A DNA stretch of 64,000 bases from an uncultured virus (IMG/VR IMGVR_UViG_3300042558_004670) (IMGVR_UViG_3300042558_004670), one strand, 5' to 3'. Positions 2,828 to 49,972 are shown, numbered from the stretch's first letter. A program made the numbers and translations. The notes: a model not told the origin generated them from the letters alone.

Positions 2828-3073
2828 TCAGACTTCTTTGACAAGGGCAACGATGTCGTTGCTGGACTCTACCCCAAAGTAGATGCGCCCCGTCTCATGC
2901 CACTTCTCTGGTGTGCCGTCAGGGTACTTCCCGTGGGCGTTGAAGCCAACGAGACCTCCTTTGCACGTCTCAACCACGACCTCTTCACCACCGCGCGTGC
3001 GGTAGACGCCGGGAGCGGCGATGACAACGGGAAGCGGGAGGAAGTCAAGGAAGTACGTGACAGGGCTCAGCAT
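2828..3073 (-). CDS. Hypothetical protein
   Basis: Start re-called at MLSPVTY after GGAGAACGCCATG. Confidence 0.6.
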   Translation of the reverse strand: MLSPVTYFLDFLPLPVVIAAPGVYRTRGGEEVVVETCKGGLVGFNAHGKYPDGTPEKWHETGRIYFGVESSNDIVALVKEV

Positions 3074-3163
3074 GGCGTTCTCCGTTGGTGACAAGCTGAT
3101 TCTACACACCGGTTTTGATCTGTCAAGCTTGATTGACAATCTATCAACGGATCAAGCGATTGG

Positions 3164-5036: not shown

Positions 5037-5139
5037 GGCGTTCTCCGTTGGTGACAAGCACACAATACACGCACCAGTGCGTGCGTCAAGTGTGATTGAC
5101 AAGTTACCGGCTAGAAGATCCAGATCAGGTGAGCCCCAG

Positions 5140-7217: not shown

Positions 7218-7541
7218 ATGGCGATCCGCTACTACGATACACCAGAACAGGCATTCTCCGACATGGATGCGGCGCAACGCGAGGCCGATGCGGCGGTGAC
7301 ACCGTGGCAAGCTGCCCTGAAGGCAGGCGATGTCTTCTTGTACCACGGCCAGCGCGGGGTGGTTCTAGACCTTGCTACCATGGCTGGGGATGATGAGGAG
7401 ATGCAAGAAGAGGCGGAGGTTTACCGTGAACCGCACATGGTGAATTACCGCTTCGCGCGCATTGACGACCCTGTCATGCCCAACGGGCGGCTGACGGATG
7501 TACACGTCAGCCAATGTTTCCCGTATCGAGCGGACAGTTAG
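7218..7541 (+). CDS. Hypothetical protein
   Basis: MAIRYYDTPE..., GGAG upstream. Confidence 0.6.
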   Translation: MAIRYYDTPEQAFSDMDAAQREADAAVTPWQAALKAGDVFLYHGQRGVVLDLATMAGDDEEMQEEAEVYREPHMVNYRFARIDDPVMPNGRLTDVHVSQCFPYRADS

Positions 7542-8416
7542 CGCTTTGGCGCTTCCGCGTTCGGGAACAGACGCTCTTGGGAGTCACGCAGGAACTCCCA
7601 AGCCGCTTTGTCTCCGTCGTCAACTTGCTTTTCGAACTCGCGGTGGTCCATGTCGAAGTCCAATGCATCCACATCTGTTTTGATGTTGACGACATCCGCG
7701 TAGCGCTTGCTGCTAACATGGCCGTTGGTGGCGGCACGCAGCCAAATGCGAACCAGCTTCAGGATCAAGCCAACAAACCCAGTCACCTTCTTCTTTGGTG
7801 GTGGGACATCGGCAATCCGGATTCCGATCGTTGGTACTTCACTGGGCTCACCGTTGATCTGTGTGTCACAAGCCGACATACCGAAGTTCACAGTCAACCC
7901 GCCGTCGGAGCACAAACCAACACCCGGCACTGGGTGCAGTTTGAACGCGAAGGTCAACGCAGCCGTGGCACGAAGCGCGTCTGCGGTCTTGACGTTGGGT
8001 GTTCCCCACGACGACAGGAGCACTGTTTCTTCGGTGTCCGTGTTCACTACGTAGACACCCCATGGGATCTTTGCCTCACCCATGGTTCCGGGAAACTCTT
8101 GCTTCAGTGCTTTGTAGAGGACATCCCCGTTGAAGAATCCGGCACGTGTTGGTGGCCACCAGCTGAGGTCAAGTAGCTTCCACTTTGTCAGCAATCGCTT
8201 GAGCAGGGCAAAACCATCGTCAAAGCTCTTACCATGAGCAACCCATGCGATAGCAATACCACCACCGGATGTGCCAATCAGGCGGTTGATGGGGATTCCA
8301 AGGCTCAGGAAGAGGGTGACCAGCGTGCGCAAGCAGGAAAGCGTCGCCACAAGCAACGCCCCTGTACCGCTCGCAACGATGTCAACGCCGTTTTGGTTCT
8401 CTGGTGCTTTAATCAT
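7538..8416 (-). CDS. Patatin-like phospholipase
   Basis: ASGTG (glycine-rich loop), GTSGG (GxSxG nucleophile), SDGG (DGG). Confidence 0.8.
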   Translation of the reverse strand: MIKAPENQNGVDIVASGTGALLVATLSCLRTLVTLFLSLGIPINRLIGTSGGGIAIAWVAHGKSFDDGFALLKRLLTKWKLLDLSWWPPTRAGFFNGDVLYKALKQEFPGTMGEAKIPWGVYVVNTDTEETVLLSSWGTPNVKTADALRATAALTFAFKLHPVPGVGLCSDGGLTVNFGMSACDTQINGEPSEVPTIGIRIADVPPPKKKVTGFVGLILKLVRIWLRAATNGHVSSKRYADVVNIKTDVDALDFDMDHREFEKQVDDGDKAAWEFLRDSQERLFPNAEAPKR

Positions 8417-11192: not shown

Positions 11193-11243
11193 GTGCGCAG
11201 CATACGCTGCTACACTGATCTGTCAAGCACAGTTGACGCGTTG

Positions 11244-11846
11244 CTACTTCTTCTTCCGGGAGATCTGGCGAATGAGACTGGACACCTCTTTGAGGTGGTT
11301 CACCGTATCGCGCGCCGCAGTCCACTCTTCTGCTGAGAACGACACGGTTCCGTTTTGGTTACGCCCTACAAGGTCAAGGCACTCAGACAAGGCTGGGTGC
11401 GGGTGCACACCGCTTGCAGCCTCCACTGCCGCAATCGGTAGCAGCTTCAGGAGGAGCTTGCGATCCTCTGGCCCTGCTACCGAGACTTCCTCTTCCTCCT
11501 GTACCTCTGGGAGTAGCACAGTCACGCCAGCAGCTTTCGCAAGAGTCGTCATTGACATCGTTCCCCTACCTCCCGGAAAAGCCACAACCATGTCGGGCTT
11601 CCCGTCAACGAGCATTTGTTTGTTGCGGATGAACCCTGCGGACTTGCCATGCTTTTCCCAGTCAGCTGGACAAGCCAATTGTGGGATGCCCTCTTGTTTG
11701 GCCCACCGCTTGGCCAACGTGTCTGCCCCACGGGCATCCCCATGGATGACCTGTGTGAAGTCGTACTGCTTGTGTAGCTTGTCCAACCAGTCGAACACGA
11801 AGTGTTCGTCCTGAAAGTCCCGGCCACCACAGACGAGTACCTTCAT
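11244..11846 (-). CDS. YspA/DUF2493-type SLOG family protein with C-terminal extension
   Basis: MKVLVCGGRDF, IHGDARGAD, ADWEKHGKSAGFIRNKQM, VAFPGGRGT. Confidence 0.85.
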   Translation of the reverse strand: MKVLVCGGRDFQDEHFVFDWLDKLHKQYDFTQVIHGDARGADTLAKRWAKQEGIPQLACPADWEKHGKSAGFIRNKQMLVDGKPDMVVAFPGGRGTMSMTTLAKAAGVTVLLPEVQEEEEVSVAGPEDRKLLLKLLPIAAVEAASGVHPHPALSECLDLVGRNQNGTVSFSAEEWTAARDTVNHLKEVSSLIRQISRKKK

Positions 11847-20247: not shown

Positions 20248-21163
20248 TCAATCGTCGTTTACGATTTCTGCCCACTTCGTGCGCTCCAAAAGAGCGCCTG
20301 CCTGTTCTGGGATGTGCTGCGCCACCAGAGCACGGAGTGCCTTCATGTCGTCCAGCAACGAGCGGGAATCCTGCGCAGACACAGCGACCTCCACGGGGTC
20401 CTTCACTGCTGCCTCAACTCGGCAACCGAGACACAGCGCACAGTCGTCATCGTGGCCATCACTGTCACAACCACACTCACAAGAGCACCCAGCATCTTCC
20501 AAGACCTTTTGTAGGCGCAGCATTGCCACATTCAAGGCAAGGTAGTTGTTGTGCTCCTTCAGCGTGACCCTGCTGAAGGCATCTGCCACCATCCCCAGCT
20601 CTGTGTTCTGACGACGCAACCGGTCCATTTCATCTTCTTGCTCACACAGCTCACGATGTTGAGTGCCCACCAACATCACATTGTCTTTGTTCCACTGCTG
20701 AAGCATCTTCAGGGTCCGGGCATCAACAAAAGTATCCCCATCATACAGTGGTGCGGACCCGTTGCTGGCACTTCGGTCAATCAGGTCTTTGCAAAGACGG
20801 ATGAAAGGACCCAGCCGCGACGACCTTGTCAACCCCAACCACGACAGCGCGGTCAACAGTGCTTCGCGAAGGTCATCCCGATCGCGCCGCGCCCGGAGCA
20901 ACTGGTACTCAAGGTTGCCAACTACCTCGTGAGGTGTCGGCCCTTCGTAGATATCCCGGTAGCGGTCCAGAACGCCCTGCGTGGCCCTCCGCGCCTCTTC
21001 TACCATGGCGGACAAGGGCCGACCCTTCACGTCACCAAGGAAGGCATCGTAGTTCGCCAGCACCTCTCCCAAATGGGAGATCACATCTGTGGTGAACTCG
21101 CGAAGCACTGCTGCGTCAAGGTCCGCAAGGTTCTTCCGCTCTGGCATCGGCACTTCAACCATG
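20248..21163 (-). CDS. Hypothetical protein
   Basis: ~305 aa ORF with a Cys cluster CSCECGC..HDDDCALCLGC. Confidence 0.6.
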
Positions 21164-21595
21164 ACGCTCTCCCACGTATCGAGCAAACAAAGCGGTCAGC
21201 TGTGCGACATCCATTGGTGCCTCAGTCATAACCTGCCGGATGAACTTCTCCCGCTTGTCGTAAGGAATCTTGAACAGGTCCAGCTCACCGCCAGTAGCGG
21301 GCTTTGACCTTGACTCACTTTTCGAATGGTGAATTTGCTTCGCACAAAGCGCACACCGATACGTTGTTGAGCACTCCCGGTCGTTGGTACTCCCAAGAGT
21401 ATCTGTGACGTGGTTGTATACACCAATGTAGTATGGGTGCTGACACAAGCTCACCAACTCGGCGTGCGCCGCCTGAACTTCAGCATGTGCAGCATGCATT
21501 CGCTTCTGAGCCGCCCAATACCGAGCAAGAACATCTTGCGGTAAGTCGTCTGCGAGCGCAACTGAGGCGGGCTTGGTCATTTGGAGTCTTTCCAT
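21155..21595 (-). CDS. Hypothetical protein
   Basis: 146 aa, CQHP...YRCALC. Confidence 0.55.
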   Translation of the reverse strand: MERLQMTKPASVALADDLPQDVLARYWAAQKRMHAAHAEVQAAHAELVSLCQHPYYIGVYNHVTDTLGSTNDRECSTTYRCALCAKQIHHSKSESRSKPATGGELDLFKIPYDKREKFIRQVMTEAPMDVAQLTALFARYVGERHG

Positions 21596-22272
21596 TTCAG
21601 GATGGCTTGAGGGGAGAAGCAGCCTTCGGGCAGACTCTCTGTAGCAGCTTCCTCCCGAGACGAAATGGCGGACATGAGACGCGCAGTATCGACCGCACGG
21701 TCAACCACGTGAAGACTCTCAGTATCGAAAAGAAAGGACTGCCCACCCGAATTGGTATTCACCAACTCGCTGTCAGCCACGGTGGCGATAGCTTCCTTGC
21801 TCTGTCGCTGAATCTCCTCCAACGGCAAGGGTCGGTGATGGAGGTCCGCAAACTGCCGAAGCTCCTCCCGCCGCTCCATGAGCAGGGTGCCAAGCCAGCT
21901 CTCCCCAGCACCACGGCACACACCCCAGAAGCAATCGCCCCAATAGTTTGCCTCCAACAGCACGGCATCTCCCGTGTCCAGAAGACGCTGCGAAAGGTCA
22001 GACCCCGGCTTGAACTTCTCCCGCTGAAGCGTTCGCATCACGTCGATACGAACGGCATCCCAGTCCGGACGTAACGAGACAGATCGACCAAGACGCTTCG
22101 CAGTCCTTGGCGCCACATCCTGAAAACGCTTCCGGTCCTCCAAGTCCAGCGTCTTGGCCGCTTGGTAAGCGTTCTCCGTGGCGCAGTAGGTCATACCGTC
22201 AAACACCACAGGCTCAAGGTGAAAGTTGCTCAAGAACCGGTGCTTACCGAAGAAGCCATTGACAATCTGCAT
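21577..22272 (-). CDS. NADAR (YbiA-like) family protein
   Basis: FLSNFH, ENAYQAAK, AKRLGR, LLDTGDAVLLEANYWGDCFWGV, GESWLGTLLM. Confidence 0.9.
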   Translation of the reverse strand: MQIVNGFFGKHRFLSNFHLEPVVFDGMTYCATENAYQAAKTLDLEDRKRFQDVAPRTAKRLGRSVSLRPDWDAVRIDVMRTLQREKFKPGSDLSQRLLDTGDAVLLEANYWGDCFWGVCRGAGESWLGTLLMERREELRQFADLHHRPLPLEEIQRQSKEAIATVADSELVNTNSGGQSFLFDTESLHVVDRAVDTARLMSAISSREEAATESLPEGCFSPQAILKWKDSK

Positions 22273-22324
22273 AGTTACCACCGTTTGACGGATATGCTGC
22301 GCAGGATAGTTATCCTGCGCAGAG

Positions 22325-23326
22325 TCACTTGGGGACAAGCACAGACAACGTCTTGCCCTTACTGGACAACCAACCGTAGCTTTGTGCCATGTCGAAAAGG
22401 GTTTCGACATCCAAGCGTACACCAAACTCTTTTCGAGTCCTGCTCACAGCGTGCCGGAAAGCTTCGTAGTCCCTGTATGTCACACCATTCAAAGAGCTGA
22501 ACAGGCGATTGATACTGGACTCTGGCGGCGGAACCTTGACAGCAACCTTCTTGGTGGCCCCAGCTTCTTGCCGCAGCTTCTGGTTCTCCTTCTCCAGCAA
22601 CGAAACGAGTGGGTTCCCCGCTTCATCAAGGTCCGGCTCCCCAAGAGCAGCGTTCAAACTTGATAGAGCAGCGGGACCAACTTCACTCTTGCACAGGTCC
22701 AGCACCACCCGCGCCTCGTCAAGTCGGCGCAACGCGCGCTCAAGCGCATTCGACAAGACACCCTCACGACGCGCCATCACACGGGCTAGCAGGTCTACCT
22801 CTACCCGGAACGGACGGTTCAGAATCTCCGTGAGTACCTTTTGTGCCTCCTGAAGCTGACTTTCCGTTGGAGCATTGACTGGCTCCGTGCTCTCCTTCAC
22901 AGGCAAACCTTGCGCCTTCCGGAGGTCTTGGTACATGCGGTTCACTGATTCGAACGCGGGATGCACCCACTCCTTGTCGAAGATACGCGCATCGAACATG
23001 GCGCCACCACGAAGGTCACCAAGGTCCTGACAAGCTTCAAGGTTCCAAATGAACCGCTCGCAATCCTTCTTGAGGTCAGCGTTCTGCTCAAGGCATTCGT
23101 CAAGCGCCGCCTTCATGGCAGCAACACCTGCACCCGCCTTGACCACCATTTCCTTCTCGTGTCGCTCCCGCGCAACCTCAGCTTCAAGGTCCGCGATCCT
23201 CTGCTGGTCCGCCGCTGTCTGGTCTGCCAACAACTGGGCGATGCCATCGCACCGGGCATTTCCCATTGGGTTCTGATCACAAAGATGCTTGGCTGCTGCA
23301 ACGTGCTCTGCTGTTGGTGCATTCAT
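22325..23326 (-). CDS. Coiled-coil hypothetical protein
   Basis: 333 aa, internal repeat NAPT.E. Confidence 0.6.
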   Translation of the reverse strand: MNAPTAEHVAAAKHLCDQNPMGNARCDGIAQLLADQTAADQQRIADLEAEVARERHEKEMVVKAGAGVAAMKAALDECLEQNADLKKDCERFIWNLEACQDLGDLRGGAMFDARIFDKEWVHPAFESVNRMYQDLRKAQGLPVKESTEPVNAPTESQLQEAQKVLTEILNRPFRVEVDLLARVMARREGVLSNALERALRRLDEARVVLDLCKSEVGPAALSSLNAALGEPDLDEAGNPLVSLLEKENQKLRQEAGATKKVAVKVPPPESSINRLFSSLNGVTYRDYEAFRHAVSRTRKEFGVRLDVETLFDMAQSYGWLSSKGKTLSVLVPK

Positions 23327-24087
23327 TTCATGTCCTCCACGAAGCTGAGGATGGCGGCAACGGTCTTGCGCGCCTCCACCCTGTCACTTTCCTTCTCACG
23401 CTCGCTGAGTGAAGCATACGGCGTGGTGCGCTGACGACGCCAACGCTCAACATGAGCTTCAGTGTCACCGGGGCGACGAACCTGCTCAACGCACTTCTCG
23501 CGGTATGACTCCCAATCAGACCAGCGAGCATGCTCAATGTGCGCCAGAATCTCAAGCAAATCAGGATTCGAAAGAAGGTCTACTACGGGTGGACAGCGAA
23601 CACGCTCCAGCTCTGCAATCCGAGCAACATGGTGCTCGCAGGCGCGCTCGAACTCTGCACTCGCACCAGCCGTGCAATTCAGGTCGAACTCCAGCTCTGC
23701 GATGCGCGCTTGTGCAACGGAAAGGTCGTTGCGCAGTTTGTCGTTCTCGATTCTGTCCCGCTCCATCTGCGTGATGGCAGCGGCGGTGACTTCCTTGGCC
23801 TCCTTTGCGAACTCCCCGTGAAGCTCAACTCGCAGCTTGTGCTCACGCTCAGCAATGCACTGGGCAAGGTCATCACCGAAGTACCCCACCCACGGACGCT
23901 TGCACCAAGCGTGAGCAAAAGAAGTCTGCTCCTCAGTCGGCTCAATGACAGGTTCCATGACCGTCGGAACAGGGTCATGCTGGTCTGAGCACGGCCAGCA
24001 TATGACAGGGTCGCTGGTGACAGCATACGTATCGGTTTGCTGGCAGCGGGGGCAACGCATCTTGCAGGTGTTGGCGTCAGTCGTCAT
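23323..24087 (-). CDS. Coiled-coil hypothetical protein
   Basis: MTTDANT; ARIAELE repeats; C-terminal HARW...TPYASLSEREKESDR. Confidence 0.6.
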   Translation of the reverse strand: MTTDANTCKMRCPRCQQTDTYAVTSDPVICWPCSDQHDPVPTVMEPVIEPTEEQTSFAHAWCKRPWVGYFGDDLAQCIAEREHKLRVELHGEFAKEAKEVTAAAITQMERDRIENDKLRNDLSVAQARIAELEFDLNCTAGASAEFERACEHHVARIAELERVRCPPVVDLLSNPDLLEILAHIEHARWSDWESYREKCVEQVRRPGDTEAHVERWRRQRTTPYASLSEREKESDRVEARKTVAAILSFVEDMK

Positions 24088-25108
24088 CGCTGCCCCCGTT
24101 GATGGTAGAAAGAGCATCGTCGATCTTCTCCAGAGTGGACACTTCGCAGATGCCGCTTTCGTCGTCGCACTCGTCTCCCGAGGCAGGCACATGGTGCTCC
24201 ACGACAACCCTCGCCGCTTGCAACGCTTCTGCCAGCACTTTGACAACACTGAGGTGTTGCGCACGCACCTTGCTCAAACGGTTCCGGTAAACCTCAGCAC
24301 GCGCACCCATCTTCACCATGAGGAGTGTATTCTTCGCCGCCAGCTCACCAGTGCGCAGGGAGGCGTGCTGGTGGGCGTACTCCAATGCGTTTTTCGCCTG
24401 CGTCACGCATTCGGAGCAAGCTTCACATGACCCGTCAGCGCAGTCTTTTGCCTGCTCCTCAAGTTCCGCAATCCGAGCGCGTGCAGCACTGACCTCGTCA
24501 GCCAGAGCGAACGCCTTCGCTGGGTCCATGTGCAGGATACGCGCCGTCGTCGGGTCGTACCAGTCCCCAGAACTTGCCACGCGGTCATGCACAATGAAGC
24601 GTGGCTGATCGCTCGTTGGGTAGCGGTGGCCTCCCTCTTTGAGTGCGCACACAAGCTGGTCGTTGTTGGCGTTCAGTACCTCGATTTCCGCGCGTGCAGC
24701 GGCAAGGTCTGCCTTTGACACAGCAAGGTCGACCTCACTGGAAACGCACGACTTTGTAATCTCCCGCAGCTCCTCCCGCAGCTTGTGCTCACGCTCAGTC
24801 GGTCCGATATCCTTTGTCTTCGGACTATCCTCAACAGCCGGCACATCTGCACCGTAACGAGAAAGGAATGCCACGGACGGGCCAAAGGCATCGTCAGCGT
24901 TAACGAGGTAGCCTTGCGCTACCGCTCTCTTCGCAAAGGCAAGAAGGTCGTTGATGGCACTCACAGCATCCGAACGAAGCGTGTGCCCTTTCATGTGCCG
25001 GATTGTGGCCTCCAGCTCTTTGATCCTCTCAACATGCTGGAGGTCGCGCAGTTCAAGGTCATGAATGCGAATCTCAAGGTCTGATTCCCGCTTCTTCTCT
25101 TCCGTCAT
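24077..25108 (-). CDS. Coiled-coil hypothetical protein
   Basis: MTEEKKR; shares EREHKLRxEL and ARIAELE with its neighbour. Confidence 0.6.
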   Translation of the reverse strand: MTEEKKRESDLEIRIHDLELRDLQHVERIKELEATIRHMKGHTLRSDAVSAINDLLAFAKRAVAQGYLVNADDAFGPSVAFLSRYGADVPAVEDSPKTKDIGPTEREHKLREELREITKSCVSSEVDLAVSKADLAAARAEIEVLNANNDQLVCALKEGGHRYPTSDQPRFIVHDRVASSGDWYDPTTARILHMDPAKAFALADEVSAARARIAELEEQAKDCADGSCEACSECVTQAKNALEYAHQHASLRTGELAAKNTLLMVKMGARAEVYRNRLSKVRAQHLSVVKVLAEALQAARVVVEHHVPASGDECDDESGICEVSTLEKIDDALSTINGGSDDD

Positions 25109-25410
25109 GCTTTTTCCTTCCAAGCTTTCAAGGCTTCGATGACGTCCTTACGGTCGCCATCTTTGCTCACGTAAAGTTCATGAGCCTTGCACACTTCACG
25201 AAACGTGTTGAACTTTTCGTTCAGGCGCTTCTTCTCAGCTTCAATTTCCGCAGCGAGAGCGGACAAGGAATCCGCGAAGGGAAGGATCAAGTCAGCGTCA
25301 CCCGCAGCTGATTCTTGCTCAAGGGAGGAAACCATCCTCTCGACCGAGCCTCGGGGGATGTCGAACGCGTCAAACGTTGCGTACAGATAATCGAAGCTTC
25401 CACCGGACAT
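25105..25410 (-). CDS. Hypothetical phage protein
   Basis: MSGGSFDYLY N-terminus, AGGAG RBS. Confidence 0.7.
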   Translation of the reverse strand: MSGGSFDYLYATFDAFDIPRGSVERMVSSLEQESAAGDADLILPFADSLSALAAEIEAEKKRLNEKFNTFREVCKAHELYVSKDGDRKDVIEALKAWKEKA

Positions 25411-25440
25411 GTTCTCTCCTGATCAATGGGCGATGTCTGT

Positions 25441-26256
25441 TTAAGAGTTGGGGGACGATGGGGCACTCGCGAGGCGGCGTTCCAGTACCTGAACCCGCCG
25501 ATTCAGCGTCAGCAAGGCACGCAAGCTCAGGTGTGCCGTCAACTGCGCAAGGTCCTGACGCAAAGACACTTCTTTGTCCCCCGTCAGGACACTCTCTGCC
25601 CAGAACTCCTCATCAGACAAACGCACGTGAACTTCCATCGCTGTGCTGGGAAGGTCCTCAGCAAGCTTGGCTGTCGAATGGCGGCATGCTTCGTCAAAGG
25701 TCACTTCCGTCGCAAGGATGAATTGTCGGGTGGTCAACGCCGCATCCAGCCCAAGGAAGTCGATCACAGACACGAGATTGTCCACGCGATCGGCATATTC
25801 CCGCCGTGACGAGAAGAGACGGAAGAGGTCCGCGTAGACTACATCTTTCAGATTCCCGTGTCGGACAGTACCCATTCGGGACAAGCAAAGAGACGAGACG
25901 AGGCGGCGAAGGTCTGCCTTTCCCGAAGGAACAGCCCAAGGGCCATACTGAACAAGGTCTTGAACTTCTTCCCACACATTGCGAGGGAACTCCCAACGTT
26001 TACGATGGGTGTGACGAGAAGCGAGATCCTTCTCGTTTGAAGGGGTCGCTGCCTGAAGGGCTGCTTCTGCTTCCCGAGCAACCACATCGGTGTCTGTGCC
26101 AAGCCAAGAACGAAGGACACGCTGCACCTCAAGGCGAAGGTAGGCAACGATGGCAGGACTCAGAGGTCCCTTGAATTCGGGTGCCTCAGCTTCAGGTTCC
26201 TTAACTTTCGACTCAGGGATATCCCTCGCTTCAACACGGGACCAGTTCACTGACAT
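25441..26256 (-). CDS. Hypothetical protein
   Basis: 271 aa; first gene after inverted element A. Confidence 0.6.
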   Translation of the reverse strand: MSVNWSRVEARDIPESKVKEPEAEAPEFKGPLSPAIVAYLRLEVQRVLRSWLGTDTDVVAREAEAALQAATPSNEKDLASRHTHRKRWEFPRNVWEEVQDLVQYGPWAVPSGKADLRRLVSSLCLSRMGTVRHGNLKDVVYADLFRLFSSRREYADRVDNLVSVIDFLGLDAALTTRQFILATEVTFDEACRHSTAKLAEDLPSTAMEVHVRLSDEEFWAESVLTGDKEVSLRQDLAQLTAHLSLRALLTLNRRVQVLERRLASAPSSPNS

Positions 26257-26418
26257 GGAGATCTCTTTTCTTGGTGGTTGGAGGAGCTACCAGACTCTGT
26301 GAAGCAATGGGTTATCAGCTTGGGAGGGAAAGCACCTGTCTGTACCCCTTGTTGAGCTATATGACCCACAGAACACAGGAGGTATCTAGTTCATAGAACA
26401 AGTTATGGGGGTGAGAGG
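26254..26418 (-). repeat. Non-coding leader element A (inverted homologue of 29342..29505)
   Basis: Reverse complement starts CCTCTCACCCCCATAACT, contains AAGGGGTACAG and ends AAAAGAGATCTCCATG. Confidence 0.8.
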
Positions 26419-26423
26419 AGAGG

Positions 26424-26771
26424 TCACTGGCAGTCGGGGATCTCAATCCCACGCGCGTCGGCAATCGCCTTGATCTTGCGCCAATCAAAGAAGGCGCTGC
26501 GACGGACCGCGTCATATTCGTTGATTCCCAACATCGCTGCGTGGATCAGCGCAAAGCGAGTTCCCAGCATGACGATTTCGTCAGGGCGGAGGTGTTCCCC
26601 CATATTGGCGGAGAGCATTGCGTTATTCAGCCCGCGCTTGTGGTCTTCTGCCATGTTCGCAACGACCGCTTTCCCAGCAGCAACCTTGCGCGCACGGGCA
26701 GCAGCACGTGTGTTCTCGTCGCTGTCATCACCATAGCCAAACGGACAGTCCCTTTTCGCTCGTGCAGCCAT
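26424..26771 (-). CDS. Hypothetical protein
   Basis: GAGGTG RBS, dyad promoter at 26811. Confidence 0.6.
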   Translation of the reverse strand: MAARAKRDCPFGYGDDSDENTRAAARARKVAAGKAVVANMAEDHKRGLNNAMLSANMGEHLRPDEIVMLGTRFALIHAAMLGINEYDAVRRSAFFDWRKIKAIADARGIEIPDCQ

Positions 26772-26833
26772 ACGTCACCTCAAGGAGACTGTACACTCCT
26801 GCGTGGCTGCGTCAAGCGCGCTTTACGCGTGGA

Positions 26834-27157
26834 TCAGCCAGTAATGAGCTTGGCGAGGTAGTTCAAGCTTCTCGGTTGTGTCTCACGTGTAGGGCGGAAC
26901 CCGTAGAACGTGTCCACCCGCTCATGTCTCGCACCCGTATCGTCAACAACCGTGACAGACGACGTCATACCGTGTCGCGTGAACGCCTCGATTGCGGACT
27001 CTTTGGAGCGGAAGTGCATGATTCCTGTGTTGCAGCAACCACAGGACTGCTGCGCAATGCACGTGAAGTGGCACCCAGCAGTGCGCTTCTTCTCCTTCGC
27101 TGCGGCTCGTTGCTGGCGGATGTGCTCCGCCTTCTGTCGCTTGAACATGTCTTTCAT
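26834..27157 (-). CDS. Hypothetical protein
   Basis: AAGGAG RBS, dyad promoter at 27209. Confidence 0.6.
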   Translation of the reverse strand: MKDMFKRQKAEHIRQQRAAAKEKKRTAGCHFTCIAQQSCGCCNTGIMHFRSKESAIEAFTRHGMTSSVTVVDDTGARHERVDTFYGFRPTRETQPRSLNYLAKLITG

Positions 27158-27255
27158 GGGTGTTGCTCCTTTCCCTCCTCAAGGGAGGGTACACGCCAGA
27201 TCAAAAGCGTCAAGGGGGATTGACGGTTGCTGGCCCTGCGCCTACTGTCTGTCCG

Positions 27256-27744
27256 ATGAAGTTCCCATCGAGCCCAGCAAAGCTGTCGAAACTTCTGAAT
27301 GAGCACATCATTCTGATGCACGACGATGATGTCACCATCCGGCTGGAGGCTCAGCTGCATGAGCTTGGTCACATAGCGACGCTACGCCCTGACAATCAGG
27401 ACGACCTCCTGTCGTCCTTGTCGGAAGAGCATCATGTTGGAGGGGCGATCAACAACGAGGGGAAGCAGGACTCGGCTCATCACGAATGCTTGGCATCGGC
27501 CATCGCCATCCTGATTGCCCGAGAGGTGTGCCCGTCAGCTGCTCAGGCGATTCAGGCGTACGCGGAAGGCAACCTGCGCATGAACACGCCGAAGGCCTTC
27601 ACGTTTCGTGGGACCCCTGTGCGAGGGTCCGCCGATCCTGTTGGATACATGAACAAGCTTTTGGTCAGTCCTGCGACACAAAAACGCGCTCACCGAATAA
27701 TGAAGAAGGTCTTGTCCGCTCTGGAAGAGAGCTTGGAGGGTTGA
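27256..27744 (+). CDS. Small zincin (ImmA/IrrE-like) metallopeptidase, leaderless
   Basis: QLHELGH plus downstream HECLA; TTGACG-N17-TACTGT-N7-ATG. Confidence 0.55.
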   Translation: MKFPSSPAKLSKLLNEHIILMHDDDVTIRLEAQLHELGHIATLRPDNQDDLLSSLSEEHHVGGAINNEGKQDSAHHECLASAIAILIAREVCPSAAQAIQAYAEGNLRMNTPKAFTFRGTPVRGSADPVGYMNKLLVSPATQKRAHRIMKKVLSALEESLEG

Positions 27745-27813
27745 ATGGGTCGAATGTCTACCCAGTGGTTCGAAGAACTTCTGTCTCGTGTTCCTGATAT
27801 TCAAGGAGGCATC

Positions 27814-28137
27814 ATGGCTGACAAGTCATCACCCACCATCCCAAGTTATGTGCAAAGAGCGATTTCACACCTGCCCAGTGGCGAGTTGGCGGTTGTCGCC
27901 CTGAGCGATGTGCTTTGGTGCATGACTGAGGATAAAACGTGTCTTATTCGGGTACAGGCGGAGAGGCATCGCTTGTGTCTCATCGCAGGAACCCAGCGGT
28001 CTCGCGTTGACGAAGACGTTGTTGTCCGCGCGATCATTGATAGCTATCCGGGGGCACAGGTCCGAATGTGCATCGGAAAGCGGTCTCTTGTGCTGGACAA
28101 CGTCGAACGAAGTGTCCACATCACACTGGACGTGTGA
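27814..28137 (+). CDS. Hypothetical protein
   Basis: MADKSS after AAGGAGG. Confidence 0.55.
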   Translation: MADKSSPTIPSYVQRAISHLPSGELAVVALSDVLWCMTEDKTCLIRVQAERHRLCLIAGTQRSRVDEDVVVRAIIDSYPGAQVRMCIGKRSLVLDNVERSVHITLDV

Positions 28138-28193
28138 AGGTTTTTTCTACCCATCACACCAAAGCGTCATCACCAAGTCAAGGGTTGAATTTA

Positions 28194-28217
28194 CCGTTGC
28201 GGGAATTCCCGCAACGG
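28194..28217. repeat. Perfect 24-bp palindrome
   Basis: CCGTTGCGGGAATTCCCGCAACGG, intergenic. Confidence 0.85.
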
Positions 28218-28271
28218 ACCGATCTGTAAAACGTGGTTGACGTGAAACGACAAGGTGTTTAAGGTTTGAGC

Positions 28272-28868
28272 ATGCGAAAGACACCAACGTCAAAGAAGAC
28301 TCCAGACACCGTTCACCGCGTCATCCTGAGTGACGGGAAGTGGTTGCGCAGCCCCAATGTCTCAAACCTTGGCCTTGTGGTTGAAGGACAGTCGGACATG
28401 TCCCTCTTGGGTCGGACGGCTGTCTTGGCAGAGGCGAGTGCGTGGCCGCTGGACCGGGCGCGCAACATCGCTTCCCAGTTCGATGGCGCCTATGTGGACC
28501 GGGTTTCGGTTGAACTGGGAACGACCGAGCACAAGGTTCCGTTGGTCGCAGATGACTACGGGAAGCGCTTGTCGGACTGGCTTTCACAGTGGAAGGGACT
28601 TGACGGTGTTACGCTACACGAGAAAGACGGACGATTCTCGGGTCTCTCTGTGGCTGTGTTCACGAAGCACAAGCCACGTCGCCATAGTGACGCCACTGTG
28701 GAGTTCTTGTTCTGGATGAATCACCAGACATATACTCCCACCCTGACGGAGGTGGCCATTCCAAACATCTCAACAACTGAAGGAGCAGCCATCCTTGAAT
28801 TCCAGATGAAGTTGACGCTTGTTCGCCACGTAATCGCCAGCTTCCACAAAGCCTTCCCTGAAACCTGA
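28272..28868 (+). CDS. Hypothetical protein (leaderless)
   Basis: TTGACG-N17-TAAGGT-N6-ATG. Confidence 0.6.
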   Translation: MRKTPTSKKTPDTVHRVILSDGKWLRSPNVSNLGLVVEGQSDMSLLGRTAVLAEASAWPLDRARNIASQFDGAYVDRVSVELGTTEHKVPLVADDYGKRLSDWLSQWKGLDGVTLHEKDGRFSGLSVAVFTKHKPRRHSDATVEFLFWMNHQTYTPTLTEVAIPNISTTEGAAILEFQMKLTLVRHVIASFHKAFPET

Positions 28869-28879
28869 GAGGACCAACC

Positions 28880-29122
28880 ATGGGCAACAATCAAGCTCGC
28901 CAACTGAAAGCCAAGCTCCGTCACCTTCGCGAATTGATGGTGGTTGACCCACAGCGCGCTCACGTCTTTGAAGACAAGGCGCGGGACGTGTCAGCAGAGC
29001 TGGACGCTTTGGCCTTGCCGAAGAAACCAGTTCAGGAACCAGTCCTTTTCTTGGTTCCGCCGCAGCACGATGCGTTCATCAACTTCCGTGCCCTCTGCCG
29101 CAATCCCGGTGGCGAACAGTGA
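28880..29122 (+). CDS. Hypothetical protein
   Basis: 80 aa, GAGGA RBS. Confidence 0.5.
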   Translation: MGNNQARQLKAKLRHLRELMVVDPQRAHVFEDKARDVSAELDALALPKKPVQEPVLFLVPPQHDAFINFRALCRNPGGEQ

Positions 29123-29334
29123 CAGCCGACAATGACCAGCCCATCTTGTCCATGACCGAGGTCAAGGTGCTGCTCTACATAAAGCTGAAAAAGCCAACAA
29201 CTCTCTTCATGATTGCGAGGGAGGCGGGCGTGCCTATCTTCAAAGTGAAGGGCATCGTCGACAAACTGGTTGGTTTACAACTGGTTTCTGTGGATCGGCC
29301 CATGAGGGATGCTGCTGAGAAGATGTGGACCTGA
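29119..29334 (+). CDS. Small winged-helix (TrmB-like) DNA-binding protein
   Basis: EVKVLLYI...PTTLFMIAREAGVPIFKVKGIVDKLVGLQLV. Confidence 0.55.
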   Translation: MTADNDQPILSMTEVKVLLYIKLKKPTTLFMIAREAGVPIFKVKGIVDKLVGLQLVSVDRPMRDAAEKMWT

Positions 29335-29341
29335 CGCTGTC

Positions 29342-29505
29342 CCTCTCACCCCCATAACTAGTTCTCTAGATCTGATAACCTATGGTCCCCATGGTCATCT
29401 AGCGGACAAAGGGGTACAGCAGCTTTCTACCTCTCCTCCCTCGATACCTCGTTGTGTTCATTGGCTCTATGAGTCCCCACAACCCCTGAAAAAGAGATCT
29501 TCATG
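29342..29505 (+). repeat. Non-coding leader element B (inverted homologue of 26254..26418)
   Basis: Starts CCTCTCACCCCCATAACT, contains AAGGGGTACAG, ends AAAAGAGATCTTCATG. Confidence 0.8.
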
Positions 29506-30336
29506 ACCAACCTCCCCAAGCCCATAGCTCTGACCGAGTCGCATCGAAGAGACGCAGCGCAGCATTACTGCGGTACTTTTCCTGATGAGAACGTTGAGCA
29601 CTGGGTCAAAACCGACGAAGGCGTGGAGCATGTGCCTTTTGCTGTGGTTGACCTTGCGTATCTTCTGGCTGAGCGAGATCAATCAGTTCAGAAGGCCGCA
29701 GTTGAGGTTTTCGAGCGGTATAGCGAGAACAAGTTCAACACCCCTCATCCGGCTGTGGACGTTCGTGAAGCCTTTGCCCTTGATCTTGAGGTTCGCTCTT
29801 CGCGAATTCGTGACCTTGGGAAGTTGGTGACCTCCCTTCTGGGAGTTGACGTGTTGCCAGAAGACACGGATGATGCGCGTGCCGCGAAGTTCAAGAAGTT
29901 CACGTCACTGTTCAACGCCGCGATTGTGGCACTATCGGTCGTAACTGATATTGAAAAGCTCGTGATGAAGCAGTTCCAGCTTCCGCAGCGAATTGTTGAG
30001 GAATGGCGCCGTGGGCAAGGCCCAACCAACATGGTGATGACTCGTCGTCAGAGCGCAATTTGGCTGGCTGACATGGTGCAGCGCCACCTGATCGACAAGG
30101 AGGAATACGTGGAGAAGAATCCGGTTAAGGTCCACAAGCTGACTGTGCTCGTCATCGACCATGAGAACTACGGGGTCGAGTCCTGCAAGCAGCAGTTGCA
30201 GGATGTTGACGGCTTCCACGTCTCTGTTCTTTCGTCAGAAACAGCAGAGGTAGACTGGACTGACGACCACCCGCTGAACAAACATGATGGGCGTGACGCT
30301 GCTGTTGCCGCTCTTTTCCCGAAGGATGTGCCTTGA
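29503..30336 (+). CDS. Hypothetical protein
   Basis: 277 aa; first gene after element B. Confidence 0.6.
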   Translation: MTNLPKPIALTESHRRDAAQHYCGTFPDENVEHWVKTDEGVEHVPFAVVDLAYLLAERDQSVQKAAVEVFERYSENKFNTPHPAVDVREAFALDLEVRSSRIRDLGKLVTSLLGVDVLPEDTDDARAAKFKKFTSLFNAAIVALSVVTDIEKLVMKQFQLPQRIVEEWRRGQGPTNMVMTRRQSAIWLADMVQRHLIDKEEYVEKNPVKVHKLTVLVIDHENYGVESCKQQLQDVDGFHVSVLSSETAEVDWTDDHPLNKHDGRDAAVAALFPKDVP

Positions 30337-30944
30337 TGTCGACGATGACTTCCCTTGTGTATCTGTTGCCTCCTGCTCTTGCTTCCCGTGTGTGGGAGCT
30401 GTCTGACCTCTCTTTGGCCAAGCACCGTGAGGTATCTGAGGAGATTCGTGTTTTGTTGGGCGAAGGGACGGTCCGCGAGGTCTGTTCCATTCGCAACAAC
30501 ACCTACGTTGGGTATGTGGCCAAAGACGGGGAGGCTGCTCCTGATGGTCTTGTGGAGATGCGAAATCGGTCATCGGACGGCCACCGCGTGTTTTCTCCGG
30601 GTGGGCGCAAGTTGAAGGCACGGAAGGTCTGGGAGGATTTCTTCGCGAAGAAGAGCGGTGAGCTTCGACGGGACATTCTCCGTATCGAGAAGGAAGTGCT
30701 TGATGCTGTTGACCCTGATGGTGTCTGCCGCGATCGCATTGTCCGTCGGGAGGGACAGCAATTCCTTGTTGTGGCGCAGGTGCTGCCGATCAATAAGGAA
30801 AAGAACACCGCAGTGGTGATGGTTCCCATCGGGCATGAGTTGCCGCCAGACAGTGGCGTGACCTTGCTCAAGGAGTGGGAGTGGTTGAAACTGGTTGACG
30901 ATGAGGAAGAGTCCCGTCGTCAGCAGCAGAAAAAGAAGGTCTGA
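30333..30944 (+). CDS. Hypothetical protein
   Basis: 203 aa ORF in operon. Confidence 0.55.
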   Translation: MMSTMTSLVYLLPPALASRVWELSDLSLAKHREVSEEIRVLLGEGTVREVCSIRNNTYVGYVAKDGEAAPDGLVEMRNRSSDGHRVFSPGGRKLKARKVWEDFFAKKSGELRRDILRIEKEVLDAVDPDGVCRDRIVRREGQQFLVVAQVLPINKEKNTAVVMVPIGHELPPDSGVTLLKEWEWLKLVDDEEESRRQQQKKKV

Positions 30945-30948
30945 GCGC

Positions 30949-31692
30949 ATGACGAAACCGAACACGACTCGCATTGGCATCATTCTCGACGAATCCGGAT
31001 CGATGGCGTCTGTCGCAACAGCCACCGTCGCTGCTGTGAATGCTTTCGTTGCAGAGCAGAAGAAGGCTGCTGGCGATGTGGCCACGATCTCTCTGACGAA
31101 GTTCAACAGCACCGTGTCGATGGGCAAGCCCGTTCCGTTGGAGAAGTGGGTACCGATGGAGTACCAGTCGCCGCTTCTTATGGCGACGGACATGACGAAG
31201 ATTGCGACAGTGATCTCGCCACTTCCCCCAGAGCCGATCGCGGTTGCATCCCACCTGTACTACCCGAAGGGTGGCACAGCTTTGCTGGATGCGATCGGCA
31301 TCACGGTGACGGAGATCGGGAAGGAGTTGGCGGCTCTCCCAGAGGAAGAGCGTCCTTCGGATGTCGTGATTGTGATCCAGACCGACGGTGAGGAGAACGC
31401 GTCTGTGCAGTACACGAGCGCTGTGGTGAAGGCGTTGGTGGAGCACCAGCAGTCGGCCTACAGCTGGCGCTTCGTCTTCCTTGGGGCGAACATCGACGCG
31501 GCTGCTGTTGGGGCACGTATGGGCATCCTGCGCGAGTACGCGAAGTCCTATCAGAGCACCGCCACGGGCACCTCGGAGGCGATTGGTTCGCTGGCGTCGA
31601 GTGTTCGTTCGTACCGGGAGACGAAAGACGTGTCCTGCCTTGTGCAGGACGGGAGTGCTCCTGTCGTTGAACTCAATATGAAGGTGACCTGA
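30949..31692 (+). CDS. von Willebrand factor A domain protein
   Basis: IILDESGSM (MIDAS), GGTALLDAIG, IQTDGEENAS, FVFLGAN. Confidence 0.9.
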   Translation: MTKPNTTRIGIILDESGSMASVATATVAAVNAFVAEQKKAAGDVATISLTKFNSTVSMGKPVPLEKWVPMEYQSPLLMATDMTKIATVISPLPPEPIAVASHLYYPKGGTALLDAIGITVTEIGKELAALPEEERPSDVVIVIQTDGEENASVQYTSAVVKALVEHQQSAYSWRFVFLGANIDAAAVGARMGILREYAKSYQSTATGTSEAIGSLASSVRSYRETKDVSCLVQDGSAPVVELNMKVT

Positions 31693-32111
31693 TGCGGTTC
31701 CGTCAGCGCTCTATCAGTTTTGAAGCCATCCAGTTCACAGCTACGAACGTTCCGGCCATCTTGAATATGACATCTGGTCGGTTTGTTGCGCACGTGAGTC
31801 AGTTCAACCCTCTGGTTGGTGACCTTGCGGGAGGCATCCGTGTGACCTTGAATGACTGGGTGTGCAGGAGTGATGACGGGCTGTTCTTCACGTTGCCGGA
31901 TGTGCACTTCCGTGACCGGTATGAGCCAGAGCCTACGGGACTGGTGAAGCAGTTGGTGGAGGCTTTGACGGACCCAGTGCAAAAGGGCGTTGTGCATCCT
32001 GCGACGACGTTGATTCAGTGGCTCCAAAACGACCAGTTGCTTGAACAGGTTCGTGGGGAGCTGGAGAAGACCGACGCGGAAACGCTAGACCTCTTGCTGA
32101 AGCGTCTGTGA
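31692..32111 (+). CDS. Hypothetical phage protein
   Basis: FEAIQFT...DWV...F...HFRDRYEP pattern; TGATG overlap. Confidence 0.6.
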   Translation: MRFRQRSISFEAIQFTATNVPAILNMTSGRFVAHVSQFNPLVGDLAGGIRVTLNDWVCRSDDGLFFTLPDVHFRDRYEPEPTGLVKQLVEALTDPVQKGVVHPATTLIQWLQNDQLLEQVRGELEKTDAETLDLLLKRL

Positions 32112-32118
32112 GGAAGAC

Positions 32119-32144
32119 GGGGCTGGGAACGGCCCCTTTTCTTT
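32119..32144 (+). terminator. Intrinsic terminator
   Basis: GGGGCTG-GGAA-CGGCCCC-TTTTCTTT. Confidence 0.7.
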
Positions 32145-32211
32145 GCCGTCTACGTCAACCTCCCTTGACAGATCTAAAGATGGTCGTATGGTTGTGGGCA
32201 AGAGGTGTTGG

Positions 32212-33484: not shown

Positions 33485-33524
33485 GTCAATCAAGGTTGAC
33501 GACTAGCGGAGTGGTGTGTATAGG
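33485..33524 (+). promoter_or_regulatory. Dyad sigma70-like promoter
   Basis: GTCAA-N6-TTGACG-N17-TATAGG. Confidence 0.7.
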
Positions 33525-33547
33525 TCTCTTGTAACAAGGAGACCGCC

Positions 33548-34207: not shown

Positions 34208-34232
34208 CAGCTAAGGGCATTGTGTGTATATC
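34193..34232 (+). promoter_or_regulatory. Dyad sigma70-like promoter
   Basis: GTCAA-N6-TTGACA-N17-TATATC. Confidence 0.7.
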
Positions 34233-34255
34233 TCCTTTGCACCAAGGAGATTGCC

Positions 34256-48334: not shown

Positions 48335-48398
48335 AACTTAAGCACAGGAAAAGAACGCGTCAACACCGCTTGACAGATGCGGTTGTGGTGGGTACAGA
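48335..48398. promoter_or_regulatory. Bidirectional dyad promoter, both arms leaderless
   Basis: GTCAA(48359)-N6-TTGAC(48370); - arm gives ATG 48328; + arm TTGACA-N17-TACAGA-N6-ATG 48405. Confidence 0.65.
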
Positions 48399-48547: not shown

Positions 48548-49972
48548 ATGTCGAAACCCTCTTTCCCAGTCAGCCTCCCCCTGCGAAAGCTCGCTTCTGT
48601 CATCACTGATGCTGGTGGCACACCGTTCGTTGTTGGCGGTGCCGTCCGCGACTTCGTCATGGACCAGCGCGAACCAAAGGACATTGACGTTGAATGCTAC
48701 GGCGTTGATAGCGGAGTCCTTCAAACGGCGCTGGAGCGGCACTTCCATGTGGATGCTGTGGGAAAAGCATTCGGTGTGCTCAAGGTTGTCGTAGACGGGG
48801 AGACTTTTGACGTCTCCCTCCCACGGAGCGAGAACAAGGAAGGCCGTGGGCACCGTGGGTTCATCGTCACGACAAACCCTCATCTCACGACGTGGGAGGC
48901 GTGCCAACGTCGTGACCTCACCATCAACACATTGATGGTTGACCTGACCACCGGTCAGGTCCTTGAGCCTGTCGCTGGGGCACTGGCAGACTTGGATGGG
49001 AAGATCCTGCGTGCGGTCTCGCCTGCGTTCGCTGAAGACCCGCTGCGTGTTTTGCGCGTGTGCCAGTTCGCAGCACGATTTGACGCAACTGTGGAAGAGG
49101 GAACAGTCACCCTGTGCCGGTCCCTTGTTGACGAGATGCGAACGCTTCCAACTGAGCGCTTCTGGGAAGAAGTTAAGAAGTTGTTGCTGAAGAGCAAGAA
49201 GCCAAGTCGTGGACTTGAAGCCATGCGGGAGGTTGGGGCGCTGAGTCTCTTCCCAGAGTTGGAAGCACTGATCGGGGTACCCCAAGACCCGGTCTGGCAC
49301 CCAGAAGGCTGTGTTTGGACTCACAATAACATGGTGGTGGACGCTGCTGTCCGCGTGCTCTCTGAGGATGGCGTCACAGACGAAGATGAGCGCCTTGTCG
49401 TGCTGCTGGGCGCTCTGTGCCATGACCTCGGCAAGCCACTGGTGACCGAGTTCAAGGAAGGGAAGGACGGGCCACGGTGGCGCGCACACGACCACGAGGA
49501 ACAGGGTGTCGAACCAACGAGGTCATTCCTCGCACGTATTGGTTGTCCACCATACCTTGTCGAACCCGTCGTGGCGATTGTGGCAAGCCACTTGAAGCCG
49601 TTCCAGATGTACAGGGATCAGGCGTCAGCCAGTGCGATTCGTCGCCTTGCCCTGAAGGTGAACATGACTCAGTTGTGCCGGGTGGCCCGTGCAGACTTCC
49701 TTGGACGCACCACACCGGATGCCCTGTCCTGTGCGGACAGCAGGGAGATCCCAGACACGGTTTGGTTCATGGAGCAGGCATCGCGGTTGAAGGTGACCAT
49801 GTCTGCACCTGCTCCAATCGTGATGGGTCGTCACTTGCTGGAGAAGGGGTTCATTCAGGGTCCGAAAATGGGTGAAATGCTCAAAGAAATCTTCCAACGT
49901 CAGCTTGACGGGGAGTTCGAGGACCTTACTGGTGGGCTGGAAGTTCTTGAACGACTGATGACGAGAGTTTGA
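48548..49972 (+). CDS. cca: CCA-adding tRNA nucleotidyltransferase / poly(A) polymerase family protein with HD domain
   Basis: VGGAVRD, DIDVE, RRDLTIN, EDPLRVLR, WHPEG..WTH, LCHDLGKP. Confidence 0.9.
   Translation: MSKPSFPVSLPLRKLASVITDAGGTPFVVGGAVRDFVMDQREPKDIDVECYGVDSGVLQTALERHFHVDAVGKAFGVLKVVVDGETFDVSLPRSENKEGRGHRGFIVTTNPHLTTWEACQRRDLTINTLMVDLTTGQVLEPVAGALADLDGKILRAVSPAFAEDPLRVLRVCQFAARFDATVEEGTVTLCRSLVDEMRTLPTERFWEEVKKLLLKSKKPSRGLEAMREVGALSLFPELEALIGVPQDPVWHPEGCVWTHNNMVVDAAVRVLSEDGVTDEDERLVVLLGALCHDLGKPLVTEFKEGKDGPRWRAHDHEEQGVEPTRSFLARIGCPPYLVEPVVAIVASHLKPFQMYRDQASASAIRRLALKVNMTQLCRVARADFLGRTTPDALSCADSREIPDTVWFMEQASRLKVTMSAPAPIVMGRHLLEKGFIQGPKMGEMLKEIFQRQLDGEFEDLTGGLEVLERLMTRV

Follow-up and report, generated by a model that had tools for sequence, protein, structure and literature searches.

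Two inverted copies of a non-coding leader cassette head the promoter-less gene runs of an uncultured phage

The stretch of phage DNA analysed here, 64,000 nucleotides (nt) of the uncultured virus IMGVR_UViG_3300042558_004670 (64 kilobases (kb), called the window throughout), carries two homologous leaders in inverted orientation, named leader A and leader B, on the two sides of a 2.9-kb gene island. These leaders are real, statistically solid and unusual non-coding cassettes. The best explanation for the pair is that they are paralogous copies of one cis-regulatory cassette, one per divergent early transcription unit. Most likely, they act as a shared switch that sets the expression timing of the two promoter-less gene runs behind them. 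The devices that time the transition from early to delayed genes have been detailed in few model phages and are essentially uncharted in large uncultured phages. Here, a single duplicated non-coding cassette marks both hand-overs from a promoter-dense early island to promoter-less operons, which makes it a small candidate for an early-to-delayed switch.

The leaders are homologous, collinear and non-coding

The reverse complement of leader A aligns collinearly with leader B, with a single 1-nt gap (MAFFT). The local alignment score of the pair is 71, compared with 16.1 ± 2.3 (maximum 31) in 2000 mononucleotide shuffles. After the first 24 and last 16 nt are trimmed, the score is still 32 versus 14.9 ± 2.2, a value reached by none of the 2000 shuffles, and a gapped global alignment contains 117 identical columns out of 169. 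A repeat search returned two strongest pieces in register, namely block 1 (24 nt, 96%) and blocks 3-4 (27 nt, 81%). The homology, collinearity and lack of coding signal, all read from the sequence in a first-pass annotation, are therefore confirmed, as are the conserved blocks that keep their spacing between diverging spacers. The two GATA-type motifs also occupy swapped slots in the two copies, just as that annotation described.

The blocks are specific to the leaders. The 18-mer of block 1 has exactly two sites in the window even when 3 mismatches are allowed (0.03 expected), the start-codon block has two sites at up to 2 mismatches, and the 11-mer block is likewise found only in both leaders. 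A scan of the 64 kb for further copies, proposed in the first-pass annotation, ended with exactly two, the next match to a two-copy profile having E = 4.5. Each leader contains three ATA[AC]C motifs on the sense strand and none on the antisense strand, and no other 170-nt segment of the 64 kb has three; the motif repeats within the leaders are only 5-6 nt long. The ATG that closes each leader had been taken as the start of the next gene, and it is indeed the first possible start of the open reading frames (ORFs) encoding the 271- and 277-amino-acid (aa) proteins (Table 1). Homology that runs through the start codon, together with ATA[AC]C motifs that all lie on the sense strand, fits a reading of the leaders as single strands.

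No paralogy was found between the genes flanking the two leaders, which are unrelated. Since only the non-coding leader is duplicated and its neighbours are unrelated, the duplicated unit can be regarded as a modular control cassette. A coding function was rejected, as copy A has stop codons in all three sense frames and no ORF is conserved. The differences between the copies are distributed over the three codon positions as 21, 13 and 14 of 37, 37 and 36, without third-position excess. A small antisense ORF starting in the 18-mer was also discarded, only its first five residues being common to both copies. The tetranucleotide CTAG is rare in the window (25 seen, 53.5 expected), and 4 of the 25 sites lie inside the two leaders.

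The sense strands are rich in C, poor in G and unstructured

The sense strands of the leaders consist of 30-32% C and 17-18% G. Leader B holds the 100-nt sense window with the largest excess of C over G among 3587 in the right arm, and leader A provides the top windows among 1925 in the left arm; the sense strands of genes are otherwise G-rich. Leader B has up to 30 YC dinucleotides per 100 nt, versus 12.6 ± 3.7. The excess of C over G extends over the diverged spacers of both leaders. A bias that is kept on the sense strand of diverged spacers implies a constraint on one strand, which is expected of single-stranded RNA and not of a double-stranded site. This strand-specific composition points to a role as RNA. 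Both leaders have the composition of rut-type sites, namely at least 70-80 nt of untranslated, C-rich, G-poor and weakly structured RNA.

RNA folding of the leaders gave no excess stability over shuffles (z = -0.17 and -0.16), and the high-probability helices of leaders A and B do not coincide; a shared RNA structure, which the first-pass annotation had put forward for examination, thus finds no support. The consensus fold of the two leaders is weak (22 pairs, -9.9 kcal/mol). As DNA, neither strand of the leaders gains stability over shuffles, and folding can even be weaker (z +0.2 to +1.5); an Rfam search over 26100-29700 returned no match even at E <= 5.

The leaders connect a promoter-rich island with two promoter-less runs

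The dominant promoter type of the phage is built from GT[CA]AA, 6 nt, TTGAC[AG], 16-18 nt, G-rich positions and a TAnnnT -10 region. A good -10 region accompanies 27 of the 37 dyad orientations in the window, with promoters every 1-3 genes. No TTGAC dyad was found on the minus strand from 26811 to 20262 or on the plus strand from 28241 to 32154, and a generic sigma-70 scan of these promoter-less runs gave two weak 9-of-12 matches only, inside coding sequence. The two promoter-less runs are exactly those headed by the leaders, with the promoter-rich 2.9-kb island between them. In agreement with the earlier reading, each leader heads an outward gene run, and neither contains the TTGAC dyad promoter (no TTGAC[AG]) or a good Shine-Dalgarno site.

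The location of the leaders needs revision in one respect. They had been placed at the strand switch, whereas the strands really diverge at the promoter dyad 27209-27224, with two and five co-oriented island genes between it and leaders A and B, respectively. To the left of the switch lie the genes 26834-27157 and 26424-26771 (gene coordinates come from a simple codon-usage caller and are approximate), with leader A 5 nt past the last stop codon. To the right lie five genes, and leader B begins 7 nt past the stop of the gene for the 71-aa protein. With co-oriented genes on both sides and a stop codon immediately before them, the leaders are each a spacer between cistrons of a transcription unit and not a divergent control region. 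In the hairpin scan, nothing resembling a terminator is listed in the interval from the last island gene to the leader on either side; the hairpin with a T run at 28121 indicates that the phage marks operon ends with hairpins. The coordinates of the leaders, their blocks and the surrounding features are collected in Table 1.

Table 1 Leaders, conserved blocks and transcription-related features around the island.
Feature	Position	Strand	Remarks
Leader A	26254..26418	-	165-nt non-coding, ATG included; from the stop of the 115-aa gene (26424-26771) to the ATG of the 271-aa gene (25441-26256)
Leader B	29342..29505	+	164-nt non-coding, ATG included; from the stop of the 71-aa HTH-like gene (29119-29334) to the ATG of the 277-aa gene (29503-30336)
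Block 1, leader A	26395..26418	-	Identical 18-mer plus GTTCT; 23/24 identical to copy B; first ATA[AC]C motif inside
Block 1, leader B	29342..29365	+	Counterpart of block 1 in leader A
Blocks 3-4, leader A	26340..26366	-	GGTCATnTAGC, 5 nt, AAGGGGTACAG; GGGTAC inside
Blocks 3-4, leader B	29393..29419	+	Counterpart of blocks 3-4 in leader A
Start-codon block, leader A	26254..26269	-	A-rich, AGATCT inside, without Shine-Dalgarno site; 15/16 identical to copy B
Start-codon block, leader B	29490..29505	+	Counterpart of the start-codon block in leader A
Bidirectional TTGAC dyad promoter (strand switch)	27209..27224		Predicted to drive 26834-27157 (-) and leaderless 27256-27744 (+)
TTGAC-type promoter of the 115-aa gene	26811..26826	-	No terminator hairpin between gene and leader A
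TTGAC-type promoter of genes 28272-28868, 28880-29122 and 29119-29334	28226..28241	+	No terminator hairpin before leader B
Intrinsic-terminator-like hairpin and T run	28121..28147	+	After gene 27745-28137
Intrinsic-terminator-like hairpin and T run	32119..32146	+	Closes the leader-B run; next TTGAC promoter at 32165
Leader-A run	20248..26256	-	About 6 kb of genes, no TTGAC-type promoter on the minus strand
Leader-B run	29503..32111	+	About 2.6 kb, four genes (277 aa, 203 aa, vWA-domain, 139 aa), no TTGAC dyad promoter

The island proteins match no Pfam, PHROG or PADLOC family, except for a sub-threshold TrmB match of the 71-aa protein. A TrmB-like winged helix-turn-helix gene had been reported to abut leader B: the adjacency stands, and the TrmB identity does not, because the Pfam match (E = 0.004) scores 17.4 bits against a cut-off of 25.6. 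The single-sequence model of this protein has a pLDDT (predicted local distance difference test) of 73, and its best fold matches are helix-turn-helix (HTH) domains, all with E of at least 0.48; on this modelling, the protein may be called HTH-like at best. The best ESM Atlas match of the 107-aa island protein (score 0.78) is uninformative.

Relatives and strain variation

The cassette was sought in several collections. Megablast of 25400-30400 against 50,697 phage records gave no match, and the 18-mer has no locus in IMG/VR. Three sets of candidates were rejected. A 16-mer has 112 loci in JGI metagenomes, none of which is similar to the window (blastn E <= 1e-3), and these are therefore chance matches. 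Its 38 loci in GTDB genomes yielded weak profile matches only (E of at least 0.068), anchored on the seeded 16-mer itself, and the pattern of blocks 3-4 has two loci in IMG/VR, in unrelated contexts. Locus searches based on the 277-aa protein and the helicase found none; the 277-aa protein has no homologue and the 271-aa protein finds only itself. Around vWA homologues (up to 41% identity), 80 IMG/VR loci show neither a leader-like match at E <= 1 nor synteny nor dyad promoters.

The closest phage record, and the only distant relative, is LR745208, a 485-kb uncultured phage whose helicase is 42% identical and whose layout upstream of the helicase is similarly divergent. An intergenic GGGTCAT-N21-GGGTACAG occurs in LR745208.1 at about 103036-103067 (L113:8041-8117, minus strand), co-oriented with the genes and 4.3 kb from that phage's own strand switch. 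Its two parts are 5 nt further apart than in the leaders. With a different spacing and no partner, the site is treated as unconfirmed.

The window stretch was found in lake-water runs, and a slightly different strain of it in wastewater runs. Four sequencing runs, X1 and X13 among them, were compared with the window for joints; the RNA-Seq label of runs X13 and X24 is a guess, and they may be DNA. Contigs of 78-91 kb are present in the runs compared. In the divergent strain of X13, blocks 3-4, the GATA motifs and the 18-mer are all retained, and the changes listed for leader B (10 substitutions, with 59 further differences on the stretch compared beyond those listed) fall mostly at spacer positions. 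Within the island, an X13 contig (depth 57, shorter side 255 letters) skips 91 nt (26970-27062) in the gene of the 107-aa protein, which is basic and cysteine-rich. As this length is not divisible by three, the X13 strain may have a broken 107-aa gene.

A transcribed gate as the favoured reading

Textbooks describe a Rho loading site as untranslated and unstructured RNA that is rich in C and poor in G. The leaders, each about 165 nt within an operon, match this description and sit between promoter-bearing early genes and promoter-less runs on both arms. For these reasons we favour, tentatively, the reading of the leaders as a transcribed, unstructured, C-rich gate that resembles the nut/rut arrangement of phage lambda. 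Host RNA polymerase would initiate at the sigma-70-type promoters of the island (27209-27224, 26811-26826 and 28226-28241), pass the last island gene on each side and enter the leader. The leader messenger RNA (mRNA) would then expose an untranslated, unstructured, C-rich and G-poor stretch of the kind on which Rho loads, and in the default state it would limit read-through to the promoter-less run behind. The conserved blocks (the 18-mer, the three ATA[AC]C motifs, GGTCATnTAGC-N5-AAGGGGTACAG and the start-codon block) may be recognition sites for a phage or host factor, which would open the gate and also set how the first gene, lacking a Shine-Dalgarno site, is translated. We infer the read-through transcription of the leaders, the action of Rho or another elongation or translation factor on them, and the binding of a factor by the blocks. 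Position and composition together suggest that the leaders govern transcription elongation and initiation as well as translation where the island hands over to the runs.

Several observations weigh against the gate. Composition, and no conserved block, is what a rut site requires, so a second factor is needed to account for the blocks; family and ESM Atlas searches matched none of the island proteins to a known antiterminator or Rho inhibitor. The sequence preferences of Rho differ between phyla. GGGTAC, a SigB-type -10 hexamer, lies inside blocks 3-4, and a promoter within the leader is possible. In strain X13, one of the ten listed leader-B substitutions falls in a conserved block, and this depletion is not significant (P = 0.13).

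The nut sites of lambda provide the model for such a gate. Together with the Rho-dependent terminator tR1, nutL and nutR are inverted homologous cis sites, one per divergent early operon, which delay the 'delayed-early' genes on both arms. Like the leaders, this inverted pair flanks a central regulatory region, is placed after early promoters and before the delayed-early genes, and is associated with C-rich untranslated RNA for Rho loading. A nut site is about 35 nt long and consists of boxA and the boxB hairpin, whereas the leaders are 165 nt long and have no hairpin common to the copies. The leaders therefore share with nut sites the position, one per divergent early operon, and lack the conserved boxB-type hairpin; no N-like protein was recognised in the phage. 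In phage HK022, putL and putR also form an inverted, moderately diverged pair in the two early operons, and put acts in cis on elongation. The put sites have two conserved stem-loops, in contrast to the leaders with z of about -0.2 and helices that differ between copies. Because the defining hairpins of nut and put are absent, the leaders are not members of either family, and the likeness concerns the mode of action. The kind of device is known, and the form of the leaders is without a described family.

A more specific proposal is that the leaders form a new nut-like elongation gate of large freshwater phages, in which linear blocks on unstructured C-rich RNA and an unrecognised island factor would suppress Rho-type termination and turn both arms on together; we consider this proposal doubtful. 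If true, antitermination on unstructured RNA with Rho would widen the range of known phage antitermination forms.

The modular nature of the leaders also recalls the PeSLs of T4-type phages, which are short units of an early promoter plus a stem-loop in many copies. That description fits the TTGAC dyad promoters of this phage and not the two leaders. What the leaders have in common with these 'mobile regulatory cassettes', as parts of PMC2839356 present them, is that repeated non-coding modules stand before unrelated genes of one genome. By this analogy, repeated modules at unrelated genes would suggest that the cassette spread by recombination.

A possible second promoter class and other alternatives

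The leaders might instead be promoters acting at the DNA level that need an alternative sigma factor or an activator, the blocks being promoter elements and operator sites. We rate this alternative, the main rival of the gate, as somewhat unlikely. In one possible layout, GGTCAT and its surroundings would be the -35 element, GGGTAC the -10 element, the 18-mer and the ATA[AC]C motifs upstream sites, and the remaining 80 nt or so a 5' untranslated region (UTR); the upstream sites could bind an island regulator, for example the 71-aa HTH-like protein. Block-wise conservation with kept spacing speaks for a promoter, as do the three ATA[AC]C motifs at fixed positions, the lack of any other promoter in the runs behind the leaders and the small HTH-like gene (sub-cut-off TrmB match) adjoining copy B. 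GGGTAC lies in an 11-nt block identical in both copies, with GGTCAT 13 nt upstream in both. The parts of PMC8346170 that treat SigB-family promoters give GGGTAC/T-type -10 hexamers with a 12-15-nt spacer. The leaders resemble these SigB/SigF promoters of Gram-positive bacteria in the GGGTAC -10 hexamer and in a conserved block 12-14 nt upstream. The single intergenic GGGTCAT-N21-GGGTACAG of LR745208 is the sole match in its 485 kb (nhmmer E = 0.027) and is counted on the same side.

The details fit less well. A -10 profile was built from 27 promoters of the phage itself. On it, block 4 stays under 2.2 bits, and the best matches in the leaders, with 6.9 and 7.1 bits (ranks 96 and 86 of 127,980), lack an A at the second position. 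To a SigB/SigF-type -35 element (GTTT or GNNT, 12-16 nt upstream), the upstream block is a poor match: copy A fits GNNT-N16, copy B fails GNNT at N14-16, and 2-3 of 6 positions agree between GTCAT and GTTTAA. Among 100 ORFs of the window that were scanned (in lots of 16 and 86, two in both), neither a sigma factor, cognate or other, nor an RNA polymerase gene was found. The LR745208 site has a spacing off by 5 nt and no mirrored partner. Since several promoter consensuses were compared, a single hexamer match is weak and only a lead. A double-stranded site leaves unexplained both the excess of C over G in the diverged spacers and the conservation up to the start codon. As for the multi-site protein-binding array proposed in the first-pass annotation, sequence-specific recognition is plausible, and a purely DNA-level array fails to account for the bias of C over G that the diverged spacers keep on the sense strand only.

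The operator-promoter regions OL/PL and OR/PR of lambda illustrate both the appeal and the limits of a promoter. As with the leaders, inverted multi-site DNA flanks a regulatory island of about 2.5-3 kb and heads long outward operons, and the lambda immunity region, like the island, encodes a small HTH protein. The lambda regions, however, are canonical sigma-70 promoters with palindromic operators, whereas the leaders contain no phage-class promoter and carry direct motifs on one strand, and the genes of the island are oriented outward and lead into the leaders, unlike the lambda arrangement. If the leaders are promoters after all, they would define a second promoter class and a regulon for this phage lineage. 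Read as a gate or as a promoter, the leaders would have the same role, that of a shared timing switch of the two arms.

An action on translation only, the leaders being long, unstructured, pyrimidine- and A-rich intercistronic regions for starts without a Shine-Dalgarno site, or carrying a translational-repressor site at the start-codon block, appears improbable. It would account for a start-codon block that is 15/16 identical amid diverged sequence, for the lack of secondary structure, and for leaders without a Shine-Dalgarno site in a phage whose other genes have AAGGAG-type sites or are leaderless. It accounts neither for the 18-mer, which is the strongest block and lies 145 nt ahead of the start codon, nor for the 165-nt length, nor for the presence at exactly the two promoter-less runs; no translation factor was identified.

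Even less probable are DNA sites for replication, partition, packaging or organisation, such as an origin pair, centromere-like arrays or injection-stop signals. The three direct ATA[AC]C motifs per leader would suit such sites, and the G+C content of the leaders is 48.5-49.7% against a window mean of 56.4%. Yet by low G+C the leaders rank only 235th and 541st of 12,767 windows, and none of the seven DnaA-box-like 9-mers of the window (up to 1 mismatch to the consensus) lies inside them; the replication origin pair suggested earlier finds no support. The cumulative GC skew has its minimum near 24-26 kb, a kind of break that had been proposed as an origin sign, but the genes change strand at the same place, and this alone suffices to account for the minimum. 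A search of the neighbourhood for replication-initiator or ParB-type families found none, the repeats measure just 5-6 nt, and the homology stops exactly at the start codons.

A relic duplication without present function is hardly plausible. There are only two copies and no relatives to show conservation, but blocks of near identity (24, 11 and 16 nt) are separated by spacers that are mostly diverged and nevertheless keep their length and C-richness, a pattern that neutral decay of a duplicate would not give, and both copies occupy the same functional position.

The least credible alternative is that the leaders are recombination sites bounding an invertible 2.9-kb island, or the ends or scars of a mobile cassette: a 24-nt inverted repeat (23/24) abuts the island on both sides, the outward-reading layout would survive inversion, and parts of PMC2839356 describe regulatory-cassette shuffling in T4-type phages, but neither a recombinase nor a transposase family turned up in the island or next to it, the homology stops at the start ATG of the gene on either flank, as befits a 5' leader better than an element end, and an X1 contig of 25,771 nt spans both leaders collinearly in the orientation of the window, contrary to the inversion envisaged before. 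Of the features of Hin/Gin-type invertible segments, the border inverted repeats are present, no recombinase family was found, and only the orientation of the window was seen. No opposite-strand joint is listed at the leaders in the four runs, the only such joints being 27869-27966 in X13, although contigs drop rare variants and a rare inversion could be missed. A joint from 29295 to 29389 in X13, with a shorter side of only 27 letters, was disregarded.

Further features of the phage and its promoters

The window has a G+C content of 56.4%, no tRNA and no Rfam match at gathering score. Its recognisable genes belong to phage DNA and RNA metabolism and include a methylase-helicase fusion, a Dda-like helicase, an exonuclease, a PD-(D/E)XK nuclease, a CCA-adding enzyme, a DHH phosphoesterase and an HU-like protein; the majority of ORFs are without a family.

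Examples of the TTGAC promoter family lie at 3122-3137, 5085-5100, 11222-11237, 33485-33500 and 48359-48374, and several are palindromic and predicted to fire both ways. In many of these promoters the ATG follows 6-7 nt after the -10 region, so the mRNAs would be leaderless, and the non-leaderless phage genes use AAGGAG-type Shine-Dalgarno sites. Corynebacterium glutamicum has a TAnnnT -10 region and 33% leaderless mRNAs, according to parts of PMC3890552, and from the resemblance of the promoter grammar an actinobacterial host is possible. Behind TTGAC promoters, a short 5' UTR cassette with a strong Shine-Dalgarno site is common to unrelated genes (3071-3107 and 5034-5070, minus strand). Similar short leaders occur at 33520-33547 and 34228-34250, and they resemble the promoter cassettes of T4-type phages. 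AGATCT or GATCTG is often found directly upstream of the promoter dyads, and GATC is slightly rare in the window (264 versus 315).

A protein with PCRF and RF-1 release-factor domains (E = 7e-24) is encoded at 52917-53603 (plus strand), near the CCA-adding enzyme gene at 48548-49972; judged by their domains, the two genes point to translation-related accessory functions. Two long ORFs on opposite strands, 55883-57241 (minus) and 56351-58669 (plus), overlap by about 890 nt. The Dda-like helicase match spans the whole minus-strand ORF, and the exonuclease match covers residues 409-765 only of the plus-strand ORF, so the true start of the latter gene is probably far downstream. Patatin-like phospholipase, NADAR and SLOG (YAcAr) genes are kinds often tied to phage-host conflict, and the early arms encode proteins with these domains at 7538-8416, 21577-22425 and 11244-11846, respectively, all on the minus strand.

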